Numbered from the stretch's first letter, positions 34,483 to 38,729 are shown. The stretch: DNA of 64,000 nt from Burkholderiales bacterium (GCA_030683105.1 JAUXMZ010000037.1:767-64766); one strand, 5' to 3'. The notes: generated by a model from the letters alone, not told the origin. A program made the numbers and translations.

Positions 34483-34545
34483 TCACTCGTGGTAATCCAT
34501 GGCCTTCTAACCATGCTTCTTGAGGAGTTCGTCGCGTTAGACGGA
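34483..34545 (-). pseudogene. Decayed duplicate of the gmd 3' end
   Basis: TCACTCGTGGTAATCCATGGCCTTCTAACCATGCTTCTTGAGGAGTTCGTCGCG aligns with 35160-35222 (TCATTCGTGATAATCCATGGCCTTGTAGCCATGGTGCTTGACGAGTTCGTCGCG). It translates as RDELLKKHG*KAMDYHE* against gmd's [17 protein letters not shown]. Confidence 0.8.
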
Positions 34546-35163
34546 CATCTTTGGCGAAGCGATGATGCCGCGGACCTGGATGCATGCCATCACAGTTGCC
34601 ACGCTCTCTTCCACCGACATGCTGACACTGTTGATGACGATTTCCGCGTTGTCCGGTTCTTCATAGGGCGAACTGATGCCGGTGAATTCCTTAATTTCGC
34701 CTGTACGTGCTTTGCTGTAGAGACCTTTAACGTCTCGCGCTTCGCACACTTCGATGGGGCAGCGGCAGTAGATTTCCACAAAGTCGGCGCCGACGAGACG
34801 ACGAACACGATCGCGGTCGGCGCGAAGGGGGGAGATAAATGCGCTGAGGACAATGATACCTGCATCTGCGAGGAGCTTGGTCATTTCCCCAATACGGCGG
34901 ATGTTTTCATGGCGATCCTCGATGGAAAAACCCAAGTCGCCGCACAGGCCATGGCGGACATTGTCGCCATCGAGAACGTAGGTGTGGCAGCCAAGTTGGT
35001 GCAGATGCTCTTCGACAGCGTGAGCGATAGTCGATTTTCCGGCGCCGGAAAGGCCGGTAAACCAGACTACGGCACCCTTGTGGCCGCTCAACTGCTCGCG
35101 ACGAGCGCGGGTCACGGTGGCGTGATGCCAGACAGTGTGAAAACTCCGGGGGCTATGGGTCAT
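34537..35163 (-). CDS. cysC: Adenylyl-sulfate (APS) kinase
   Basis: ORF 34537..35283 trimmed to the ATG at 35163, which overlaps the gmd stop (ATGA). It has the P-loop GLSGAGKST and ...[12 protein letters not shown]...ENIRRIGE...FISP.... Confidence 0.85.
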
Positions 35164-36296
35164 TCGTGATAATCCATGGCCTTGTAGCCATGGTGCTTGA
35201 CGAGTTCGTCGCGCTCGGCGGATTTGAGGTCTTCGCGGACCATTTCGGCGACGAGTTCGTCGAAGGTGGTCTTGGGCGTCCAACCTAACTTCTCGCGTGC
35301 TTTGGAAGCGTCACCCAATAGCGTCTCTACCTCTGTTGGCCTGTAATAGCGGGGATCAACGCGAACGATTATATTTCCGGTGATTGGTGATTCGTGATTA
35401 GTGATTGGTAAAGACTTGGCACTGAGTGCCGAGTCAAGAATGCCGATCTCGTTTACGCCCTCGCCTTCCCAGCGGATTTTCATGCCGAGTTCTTTCGCGG
35501 CGGCGTTGACGAAGTCGCGCACGCTGTATTGCACGCCGGTGGCGATGACGAAGTCTTCGGGTTTGTCCTGTTGCAACATTAGCCACTGCACCTCGACGTA
35601 GTCGCGGGCGTGGCCCCAGTCCCGTAACGAATTCATGTTGCCGAGGTAGAGGCAGTCTTGCAGGCCAAGTTTGATTCGGGCGAGTGCTCTGGTGATTTTG
35701 CGGGTGACGAAGGTTTCGCCGCGGACGGGGGACTCGTGGTTGAAGAGGATGCCGTTGCAGGCGTAGATGCCGTAGGCCTCGCGGTAGTTGACGGTGATCC
35801 AGTAGGCGTAAAGCTTGGCGACGGCATAGGGGCTGCGCGGGTAGAAAGGAGTGGTTTCCTTCTGGGGAGTCTCCTGAACGAGGCCGTAGAGTTCGGAGGT
35901 GCTGGCCTGGTAGAAGCGGGTTTTCTTTTCGAGGCCGAGGATGCGGATGGCTTCGAGCAGGCGCAGGGTGCCCATGCCGTCCACATCAGCGGTGTATTCG
36001 GGGGACTCAAAGCTGACCGCCACGTGAGACTGGGCGCCCAGGTTGTAAATTTCATCAGGCTGCGTTTCTTGCACGATGCGCACGAGGTTGCTGGTGTCGG
36101 TGAGGTCACCGTAATGCAGCTTGAAGCGCGCGTTCTGGATATGCGGGTCTTGGTAGATATGGTCTACCCGCTGAGTGTTAAACGAGCTGGCGCGCCGCTT
36201 GATGCCGTGGACGACGTACCCTTTGCCCAGCAAAAATTCGGCAAGATAGGCACCGTCCTGGCCGGTAATTCCTGTAATGAGCGCAACCTTTTGCAT
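35160..36296 (-). CDS. gmd: GDP-mannose 4,6-dehydratase
   Basis: 378 aa. [23 protein letters not shown]...YNLGAQSHV...ASTSELYG...[10 protein letters not shown].... It contains a heptamer-repeat-encoded loop (see 35379..35409). Confidence 0.9.
35379..35409. repeat. Heptamer tract inside the gmd coding sequence
   Basis: GGTGATT GGTGATT CGTGATT AGTGATT GGT on the plus strand. On the coding strand it is translated as ...[12 protein letters not shown].... Confidence 0.9.
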
Positions 36297-36321: not shown

Positions 36322-37257
36322 TCAGTTCAAAGTTGAAAGGTAGCTAGCATAAGCTTTAGCAATACCTTCTTTGAGTTGCGTTTTAGCTTTCCAGCCCAGG
36401 TTCGTCATCCTCGAAACATCCAGCAACTTTTGTGGAGTGCCATCAGGCTTGGTGCTATCAAACACGATTTTCCCCTTGAATCCGACGACATCCATAATAA
36501 TTTCAGCTAATTCCCGGATGGGAACGTCGGTTCCGATGCCAATGTTGTAGATGCCGTCGCCAATTCCTTGTTCCATCAGGAAAATGCAGGCATCCGCCAT
36601 ATCGTCGACGTAAAGGAACTCACGCCTCGGTGTACCGGTACCCCAGATAACGAGTTCACTTTTACCATTCTGTTTTGCCTCCAACGTCTTTCGAATGAGC
36701 GCGGGCAGCACATGACTATTCGCAAGATCGTAGTTGTCGTTGGGGCCGTAAAGATTATTAGGCATAACAGTAACGTATCGAGTACTGTATTGGTGGTTGC
36801 AGCTCTCGCAAGCTTTTAGCCCAGCGATCTTGGCGATAGCATAGGGTTCATTTGTCGGCTCCAGTGGGCTGGTAAGGAGGTATTCCTCTTTGATCGGCTG
36901 GGGACAGTCGCGCGGGTAAATGCAGCTCGAACCGAGAAAACAGAGATCCTTTACACCTGCTTTGAGAGCACCGAGGATAAGATTATTCTGGATGGTGAGG
37001 TTCTCTAAGATGAAGTCAGCGCGGTAGGTGTTATTGGCAAGGATGCCCCCCACTTTGGCAGCGGCGATGAAGATGTAATCGGGTTTTTCCAACTGAAGGA
37101 AATCAAAGGCGGCTCGCTGATCAAGGAGATCGAGTTCCTTCCTGGTTCGGGTAATTAAGCGAGTGTAATCGCCTTGCTGAAGTCGGCGCACCAGAGCGGA
37201 ACCGACCATGCCGCGATGGCCGGCGACGTAAATTTTAGCGTTCTTGCCAATGGTCAT
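36322..37257 (-). CDS. fcl: GDP-L-fucose synthase (GDP-4-keto-6-deoxymannose epimerase/reductase)
   Basis: 311 aa. ...[19 protein letters not shown]...AAKVGGI...GSSCIYP...YAIAKIAG.... Confidence 0.9.
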
Positions 37258-38729
37258 TACTTACTCCGACCGTAGTTATCTTCGAATCGAACGATATCGT
37301 CTTCGCCCAGATAGCTGCCCGACTGGACTTCGATCATCTCCAATGGGGTCTTGCCGGGGTTCTCCAGACGGTGAGCGGTGCCCAGTGAGATGTAGGTGGA
37401 TTGGTTCTCGGACAACAGGAATGTTTCTTCCCCACGAGTGACCTTGGCCGTACCCTTGACCACGATCCAATGCTCTGCACGGTGGTGGTGCATTTGCAAA
37501 CTAAGTTTGGCGCCGGGCTTGACAGTGATACGCTTGACCTGGAAGCGCTCGCCCACATCAACGCAATCGTATGCCCCCCATGGTCGGGCGGCGCGGCGGT
37601 GTTGCGTGGCTTGGGGAGCGCCGGTTGCCTCCAATTCAGCAACCACCGTCTTGACCAGCTCAGCATGGCTGCAGGCCGCAACCAGAAGTGCGTCCGGGCT
37701 GTCTATGATAAGGAGATCCCGGGTCCCCAGCGCGACCACGGGTCGATGTGGGGCATGGATGTAGGTATTGTTGGCTTGCACTGCCCTGCCTTGACCATGA
37801 ATGCGGTTGGCCATTTCATCGGCAGGGGTGAGCTCTGCCACGGCGTTCCAACTCCCCACGTCGCTCCACTGACCGGTAAAGGGCACCATGGCGACCTTGT
37901 CGTGATGCTCAAGCACGGCGTAATCGATGGAATCGCTTGGGCAGGCGGCAAAGGCCTCTGGGTCCAGCCGGATAAAGAGGCCGTCCTCGGTTTGCTGCGC
38001 CGTGGCCAGGCGGCAGGCCGTAAGGATGTCGGGGGCGTGCTGTTCAAGCGCCATGATGATGGTGCTGGCCTTGGCCAGGAAGATGCCGGCGTTCCAATAA
38101 TGACCGCCGGCCAGGAGAAGTTGCCGGGCGCTGTCGGCGTCCGGCTTTTCGATGAAGCGGGCGACATTGAAAACCGGTGGTTCGTGGTTCGTACCCGTCG
38201 AGCGGGTATTGAAAAGAATGCTTCGTTGGTCGTTGTTCGTTGATCGTGGATCGTGATTCACGACTTTTATGTATCCATAGGCAGTGCTGGGAAACGTGGG
38301 CAGCACCCCGAAGGTGACTATGTAACCCGCCTGGGCAGAAGGCACACCTTTCTGAATTGTGGCTGCAAACGCTTGTGCATCGGGAATATGGTGGTCTGCC
38401 GGAGCGAACAGCAAAAGCTGATCCGGCTGGGCATTGAGCGCCGCAACCGCCATAGCGGGTGCCGTGTTGCGGCCGACGGGTTCCAGTATGTGTCGCGCGC
38501 TGACGCCCGCGGCCTCTGCTGCCTCCTGCACGAGGAAGCGGTGCTCGTCGCTCGCCACGGTTTGCATCTGCGGCGAGATGTGCTTTACGCGCTCCAGCGT
38601 CAGTTGCAGCAAGCTTTTGCCATTGATCAGCGGCACGAATTGCTTGGGAAAAGCTTTGCGCGACAATGGCCACAGGCGCGTACCCGAGCCACCGCAAAGC
38701 AGGACAGGAAGGATGTTCGTCACACTCAT
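37257..38729 (-). CDS. manC: Mannose-1-phosphate guanylyltransferase / mannose-6-phosphate isomerase
   Basis: 490 aa. ...VLLCGGSGTRLWPLSR...GRNTAPA...WSDVGSW...QVKRITVKPGAKLSLQMHHHRAEHWIVVKGTA.... It contains an in-frame composite repeat (38176..38258). Confidence 0.9.
   Translation of the reverse strand: MSVTNILPVLLCGGSGTRLWPLSRKAFPKQFVPLINGKSLLQLTLERVKHISPQMQTVASDEHRFLVQEAAEAAGVSARHILEPVGRNTAPAMAVAALNAQPDQLLLFAPADHHIPDAQAFAATIQKGVPSAQAGYIVTFGVLPTFPSTAYGYIKVVNHDPRSTNNDQRSILFNTRSTGTNHEPPVFNVARFIEKPDADSARQLLLAGGHYWNAGIFLAKASTIIMALEQHAPDILTACRLATAQQTEDGLFIRLDPEAFAACPSDSIDYAVLEHHDKVAMVPFTGQWSDVGSWNAVAELTPADEMANRIHGQGRAVQANNTYIHAPHRPVVALGTRDLLIIDSPDALLVAACSHAELVKTVVAELEATGAPQATQHRRAARPWGAYDCVDVGERFQVKRITVKPGAKLSLQMHHHRAEHWIVVKGTAKVTRGEETFLLSENQSTYISLGTAHRLENPGKTPLEMIEVQSGSYLGEDDIVRFEDNYGRSK
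38176..38258. repeat. Composite repeat (heptamers + stem-loop + heptamers) inside the manC coding sequence
   Basis: GGTGGTT CGTGGTT C-GTACCCGTCGAGCGGGTAT-TGAAAAGAATGCTT CGTTGGT CGTTGTT CGTTGAT CGTGGAT CGTGATT. It is translated as NHDPRSTNNDQRSILFNTRSTGTNHEPP. The same composite is intergenic at 45494-45627 and 49576-49690. Confidence 0.9.

Follow-up and report, generated by a model that had tools for sequence, protein, structure and literature searches.

Known phase switches are long, near-perfect repeat tracts near the 5' end of a gene, with ON and OFF alleles among close strains. Intragenic repeats of bacteria also include the Rickettsia palindromic elements (RPEs) and other repeats of the MITE/REP type (ERIC, BOX, Anabaena MITEs), which have been reviewed (PMC10969869). 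Dispersed heptamer SSRs have been described with the unit GGGAATC in Xanthomonas and GGGGAYT in Nostoc (Rehm et al. 2015, PMC4692102), and TAACTGA heptamer repeats have been described in Beggiatoaceae (PMC4679880). The repeat analyzed here likewise has a 7-nt unit. It lies inside gmd, the gene for GDP-mannose 4,6-dehydratase (Gmd), in a 64,000-nt stretch of DNA from a Burkholderiales bacterium (GCA_030683105.1); the whole stretch is referred to below as the window. The tract is quite probably a tolerated, translated repeat, one copy of a dispersed family that stands at the permissive tip of a Gmd hairpin. The features of the window that are needed for the argument are the following.

35379-35409, minus strand: the heptamer tract, coding strand ACC AATCACT AATCACG AATCACC AATCACC
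35413-35435, minus strand: a 23-nt imperfect palindrome, GACTCGGCACTCAGTGCCAAGTC, directly 5' of the tract
35373-35441, minus strand: the lineage-specific hairpin-tip segment, residues 286-308 (23 aa), from alignments and model pLDDT
35325-35360, minus strand: the conserved 12-residue block of Gmd, residues 313-324
35160-36296, minus strand: gmd, GDP-mannose 4,6-dehydratase, intact, 378 aa (P0001), from TIGR01472, structure and alignments
34537-35163, minus strand: cysC (APS kinase)
36322-37257, minus strand: an fcl-like gene (GDP-L-fucose synthase) that lies upstream of gmd, both in one operon-like run, from NF047922
37257-38729, minus strand: manC, with an in-frame composite repeat of its own at about 38176-38258

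On the plus strand, positions 35379-35409 read GGTGATT GGTGATT CGTGATT AGTGATT GGT; the first-pass annotation had given this sequence, its coordinates and its location in gmd correctly in every detail. TRF reported a period of 7, 4.4 copies, 87% matches and a score of 48. The tract is a direct tandem array and has no palindromic or MITE-like architecture. Translation of the minus-strand ORF gave the peptide P297-I-T-N-H-E-S-P-I-T306, encoded at 35379-35408. The tract had been placed just upstream of the conserved 12-residue block, and this was confirmed, with a spacing of 7 residues from the end of the peptide to the block.

Since 7 equals 1 modulo 3, the reading frame changes from each unit to the next through all three frames, which gives a period of 7 residues; a translated AATCACN array yields the peptide SPITNH(E/Q) with a 21-nt period. 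Every unit on the GTGATT strand contains TGA, so three units close all frames and only the AATCACN strand can be coding. All ten in-ORF AATCACN arrays were found in the sense orientation. The sole possible stop on this strand is TAA, formed when N is T in the NAA codon. In the unit of the gmd tract that forms this codon, N is G (GAA, Glu), and relatives carry E or Q there. The G agrees with keeping the frame open and is weak evidence on its own. As evidence of selection it was set aside as too weak, since 75% of all units have a base other than T anyway.

The palindrome directly 5' of the tract has a single copy in the genome and is also present in a related contig, L001. It looks like the remnant of a CTCAGYC-type heptamer array. 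A dispersed "stem-loop module" was considered for it and rejected on account of its single occurrence in the genome.

Gmd scored 601.7 bits against the NCBIfam equivalog TIGR01472, above the cutoff of 415, and the match placed residues 3-359 over 341 profile positions, leaving 16 extra residues. The comparison with E. coli Gmd (1db3) gave E = 1e-190. The Rossmann GxxGxxG motif is GITGQDG at residues 9-15, and the catalytic residues T133, E135, Y157 and K161 are all there, with little or no variation among the aligned sequences. The cysC ATG and the gmd stop overlap as ATGA at window positions 35160-35163 (GAATGACC), which suggests translational coupling of the two genes. The stand-alone APS kinase in a GDP-fucose cluster is a hint of a sulfated glycan. 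Upstream, the Fcl-like protein scored 465.8 bits on NF047922 (GDP-L-fucose synthase), just below the curated 500-bit cutoff, so the assignment to a "fucose branch" is probable and not at equivalog level. The composite repeat of manC consists of heptamers, the core TTCTTTTCAATACCCGCTCGACGGGTAC and heptamers again, in that order and in frame; the 14-nt start of the core has 145 copies in the genome when one mismatch at most is allowed. GC content is 44-50% at window positions 10000-34000 and about 52-57% over the rest of the glycan cluster (34-54 kb), with 60% for the genome. The low-GC region is consistent with a horizontally acquired polysaccharide island.

The assembly examined comprises 4.12 Mb in 78 contigs at 60% GC. 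In the window, GGTGATTNGTGATT occurs 46 times with at most one mismatch (0.06 expected) and GTGATT 135 times (35 expected), and TRF reported some 40 period-7 arrays. Over the genome, exact tracts of at least three units number 221 for period 7, compared with 0-52 for periods 4-12. The TRF heptamer arrays of the genome number 721 and are of many unit types, with AATCACC, AATCACT and AATCACG among the commonest. Strict AATCACN arrays of at least three units were found 63 times, mostly with three (28) or four (22) units and more rarely with five (7) or six to eight (6), so the gmd copy is of ordinary size. The 3-unit AATCACN pattern gave 122 matches in this genome, 0-11 in six same-genus genomes and almost none in other members of the family and order. 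The gmd tract is one copy of this dispersed AATCACN heptamer family and is not specific to gmd, a directly observed membership on which the first-pass annotation was silent.

A home-made ORF caller, crude and in places wrong (as at cysC), was used to place the arrays relative to genes. On this basis, 58% of the 537 arrays of three or more copies are intergenic, compared with 13% of sites chosen at random. A further 23% touch the end of a gene, and about 30 (6%) lie deep in strongly coding ORFs. Two of the AATCACN arrays are of this last kind, namely the gmd tract and an array on contig C55. The latter (C55:1420-1475) has eight AATCACC units deep in a 1426-aa ORF and encodes 18 residues. Two further heptamer arrays stand near the start of this ORF, which is a putative single gene. 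A fixed orientation of AATCACN arrays to transcription was also considered and found to be unsupported (21 opposite on both sides, 15 the same).

Gmd was modeled with AF2 from a diverse alignment of 82 rows; a model from 50 sequences, each at least 79% identical to the query, had a pLDDT of 61.8 and was discarded. The Gmd model had a mean pLDDT of 89.7 and a pTM of 0.88. Its TM values against solved Gmd structures were 0.91/0.95 for 7kf3, 0.88/0.97 for 5uzh and 0.81/0.91 for 1db3, and it also superposes on the human enzyme. The sole internal segment with a pLDDT below 50 was 297-304, in the tract peptide, between the strands 284-287 and 309-313. In sequence alignments, the solved homologues are shorter exactly at the tract, 7kf3 and 5uzh by 16 residues and 1db3 by 8. 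As modeled, the tract is at the tip of a length-variable, solvent-exposed β-hairpin in the C-terminal domain of Gmd, and its peptide is probably disordered. In the alignments, segment 286-308 stands in place of the native tip of 6-17 residues of other Gmd proteins. Structural modeling of the loop had been proposed in the first-pass annotation; the model put the tract directly at the hairpin tip, in the internal segment of lowest confidence.

The same annotation had proposed an alignment with other Gmd sequences. This was run, and most orthologues have a short, non-periodic loop without the tract. Across about 100 genomes, the stretch from WxGxG to VDPRYFRP takes either a conserved 28-residue form (GxDxxGRxIV) or a conserved 39-residue form, which is E. 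coli-like (GIVxxVxGDxAPALKVGDVVV). No DNA periodicity was found in either form in these genomes. The short, non-periodic hairpin of most orthologues marks the tract, whose absence from them was observed directly, as a lineage-specific insert or replacement.

Within the genus, genomes G004 and G005 have the short native loop and show 0 and 2 matches of the AATCACN pattern, respectively. A third genome, G002 (L102), shows 6 matches and has a 68-residue loop full of CCAATCA/CCAGTCA units. The G002 loop also holds the core TTCTTTTCAATACCCCCTTGAGGGGTAC, which is dispersed in the genome of the window (145 copies) and is found in manC there as well. Taken with the repeat counts, the loops of these three genomes indicate that loop content tracks the repeats of the host genome itself.

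The host is an uncultured proteobacterium, and the named organisms with the closest Gmd belong to the Betaproteobacteria (Rhodocyclaceae, Gallionellaceae, Rhodoferax). The loop is hypervariable among the 120 closest homologues, which are 79-89% identical and mostly metagenomic; named among them are Gallionella, Ferrigenium, Nitrosomonadales and Hydrogenophaga. Loop DNA was examined for nine of the 120 and for one further locus, L039, from the scan of named genomes. The loops of these relatives carry the following repeats.

L001: about 20 units of CACCAGT/CACCAAT
L002: CCACGAA, four units
L003: GCCCTCA, four units, and TCACCAG, 4.6 units
L004: about eight units of CGAATCA/CGAACAA/CCAATCA
L107: CAGTACT, 7.1 units
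L108: CAGTCCT, six units; CAGTCCT is also found between genes of this contig, in arrays of 10 copies
L109: a G-rich REP-like palindrome (SPSGRGAGGEG)
L110 and L039: a different dispersed element (…GGKADAAIQ… / …VIASEARQS…)

In all relatives examined at the DNA level the loop repeats were in frame, as was directly observed. The 5' part of the insert is nearly base-for-base alike in the window and in L001, CTTGACTCGGCACTCAGTGC(C/T)(A/G)AGTCTT(T/C)ACCA. This common part indicates that the two loops are homologous and that their arrays later diverged in the type and number of units. Differences in loop length are not multiples of 21 nt, so whole-unit slippage is not the sole process. The range from 4 to about 20 units among relatives indicates that slippage or recombination does act on the arrays at this site.

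Outside the loop, the Gmd of the window is closest (90%) to short-loop proteins. Sliding nucleotide identity, calculated against L111 and L001-L004, showed gmd codons 1-120 to be nearest the short-loop gene (78-81% versus 60-73%), and codons 121-210 and the loop region to be nearest the heptamer-loop genes. The pattern is a hint only that gmd may be a mosaic gene produced by recombination. In a loop-free protein tree, the heptamer-type loops did not form one clade, and at least four changes were forced by well-supported branches; the loops were labeled by rough regular expressions, and the resolution of the tree is weak. This again hints, and does no more than hint, at repeated gain and loss or at recombination.

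Translated arrays in this lineage are found beyond the Gmd loop. On the related groundwater contig L001 (L001:3001-3120 and L001:4369-5364), AATCAC-type arrays are translated in two loops of Fcl, …KQAPNHQSPITNHQPPVV… and …YQSLITSHDSPPL… (NHQSPITNHQ, QSLITSHDSPP), and Gmd has an N-terminal extension that comes from a translated AATCAC-type array, MESPITNHQSPITAVESPVT…. Translated arrays are thus a lineage-wide feature and no device of gmd. The degenerate motif ATYCTTGAYTCRGCMCTCAG (ILDSALS) was found at 15 loci in a metagenome scan, of which L123 alone is gmd. The other loci (within the set L113-L126) are intergenic CTCAGCA-type arrays or unrelated ORFs and are mostly non-coding, and in these non-gmd contigs the motif stands at the start of CTCAGCA-type heptamer arrays. 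Because the motif recurs outside gmd, the 5' part of the gmd insert also looks repeat-derived.

According to the favored explanation, a tolerated translated repeat, an AATCACN array occupies the tip of a hairpin that is naturally variable in length. The whole insert, a multiple of three, adds a short Ser/Pro/Thr-rich tip and leaves the enzyme intact, and selection would filter away out-of-frame versions. The insert itself would be functionally neutral. It may have come, or changed, by recombination or slippage with the genome's own arrays, and frameshifted variants would arise at low, near-background rates and then be lost.

The first-pass annotation had left a tolerated loop and a potential frame switch side by side. 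The former was borne out by the position at the hairpin tip, the absence from most orthologues and the low pLDDT; for the latter the arithmetic held, and there was no evidence that a switch works. A contingency locus would be a slipped-strand phase switch: gaining or losing one unit would switch Gmd off, and GDP-fucose and the fucosylated surface glycan would be lost too. The coupled cysC may be affected by the premature stop as well, and variants able to escape phages or grazers would result. As had been claimed, a change of one unit does shift the gmd frame; it leads to a premature stop. Changes of one or two units give products of 301-308 aa and would remove the last ~70 residues, which are conserved and include the 12-residue block; loss of three units gives an in-frame protein of 371 aa. 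A switch is further favored by the presence of a single gmd copy in the whole genome and by the overlap of its stop with the cysC start, where a premature stop might lower cysC translation. The surface-glycan cluster, in which other genes have arrays too, is a setting of the sort in which contingency loci occur, and unit number differs widely among relatives. Heptanucleotide switches are known elsewhere, for example the neuO poly-Psi tract (PMC9659370). Nevertheless, the tract has just 4.4 units at 87% matches, with no more than two perfect units in a row. It stands 78% of the way into the ORF, whereas SSRs of the switch type concentrate near the N-terminal end of coding regions according to Lin and Kussell as cited in PMC4692102. 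It is also a typical-sized copy of an overwhelmingly intergenic family that has no tie to surface genes. All relatives were found in frame, although protein databases would under-report out-of-frame alleles. Contigs L001 and L123, both from one groundwater well, share 99.1% identity over 2.6 kb and differ at 27 sites. Their five heptamer arrays (about 45 units) showed no difference in unit number in this one strain pair, which argues against hypermutability of array length over such a time span. Ten of the 27 differences fall in the 189-nt gmd loop (L001:3940-4128), about 5% versus 0.7% elsewhere and without change of length, and the loop looks like a hotspot of substitution or gene conversion within the array. 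Metagenomes were also scanned for near-identical alleles in which the spacing of the tract flanks could vary, with 0 matches. The unit number of the tract is known here from the assembly consensus, which would hide minority frameshifted alleles. Judged from the sequences compared, a contingency locus is an unlikely explanation, and a working phase switch at the gmd tract is unlikely.

It is highly improbable that the Ser/Pro/Thr-rich tip is a functional peptide recruited for oligomer contacts, partner binding or regulation. The tip is in frame across several related lineages and a related motif, SPIT(D/E/T)HSSPI, is found again in a different group of homologues, as such a role might predict; but close relatives differ freely in the sequence, the length and even the type of repeat at this site, disorder is predicted for the tip, and the tip is missing from the same-genus genomes G004 and G005 and from all solved Gmd structures. 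The same peptide also appears in unrelated proteins wherever the array is translated (C55, and Fcl and the Gmd N-terminus of L001). A role for the array as a cis-acting element in gmd mRNA or DNA, acting as intergenic arrays do through protein binding, mRNA processing or stability and so regulating the distal operon including cysC, is very unlikely. It would fit with the numerous arrays placed non-randomly between genes, with the C/A-rich AATCACN run, which is predicted to be unpaired and hence accessible, and with the regulatory roles proposed for the heptamer repeats of Xanthomonas and Nostoc (PMC4692102) and for TAACTGA in Beggiatoaceae (PMC4679880). No function is known for the heptamer family, however, and the orientation of the arrays to flanking genes is mixed genome-wide (21 opposite against 15 the same on both sides). 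No Rfam family was matched over 33-40 kb of the window, scans at the tract found no promoter-like site or terminator, and the RNA fold around it was not significant (z = -0.57). In the same-genus genomes G004 and G005, gmd has no such array. Across lineages, at least five unrelated types of repeat are found at the Gmd hairpin: AATCACN/CACCAGT, CCACGAA and CTCAGYC heptamers, G-rich REP-like palindromes and the "DAAIQ/VIASEARQS" element. The tip might therefore be a recurrent landing pad for the dispersed repeats of the host that goes beyond a filter by selection, either through targeted integration or recombination or through repeat-driven evolvability with occasional switching of fucosylated glycans in groundwater proteobacteria; this is rather unlikely.

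For annotation, peptides of the SPITNH(E/Q) type in conserved enzymes of this lineage are to be read as translated simple-sequence DNA, neither new domains nor sequencing errors, and a phase-variable label for the gmd tract is not warranted from sequence alone. Tandem repeats with a non-triplet unit can persist in enzymes with an essential fold when they stand on a permissive hairpin. The different repeat families in one Gmd hairpin provide a natural map of an insertion-tolerant site, and the hairpin is a small model of how dispersed repeats generate variation in protein length. The results add modestly to what is known of bacterial heptamer repeats, whose biology is poorly understood.

Compared with known switches, the gmd tract has four imperfect units near the 3' end, and no OFF allele was seen among its relatives. 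It shares with the neuO poly-Psi tract of E. coli K1 (PMC9659370) an intragenic 7-nt repeat, a surface-glycan gene and a full-length product that depends on the frame. By analogy, the dispersed heptamer SSR families are its closest counterpart in the kind of element. Those of Xanthomonas, Nostoc, Beggiatoaceae and the heterocystous-cyanobacterial STRR are likewise genome-wide 7-nt repeats that are rich between genes, poor in coding regions and lineage-specific, and the Xanthomonas and Nostoc heptamers prefer about four units, as in this genome. Unlike the Xanthomonas and Nostoc SSRs, the gmd tract has an AATCACN unit that does not form G-quadruplexes, and it is intragenic and translated. In how the tract works, the closest analogue would be the in-frame intragenic dispersed repeats, of which the RPEs are best known. 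Both are selfish or neutral dispersed repeats standing in frame in housekeeping or metabolic genes, with the peptide at a permissive place and a protein that survives. An RPE, however, is a palindromic element of ~150 bp with a conserved peptide, whereas the gmd tract is a short 7-nt tandem array read in three alternating frames, without inverted termini, whose unit type and number turn over between relatives.
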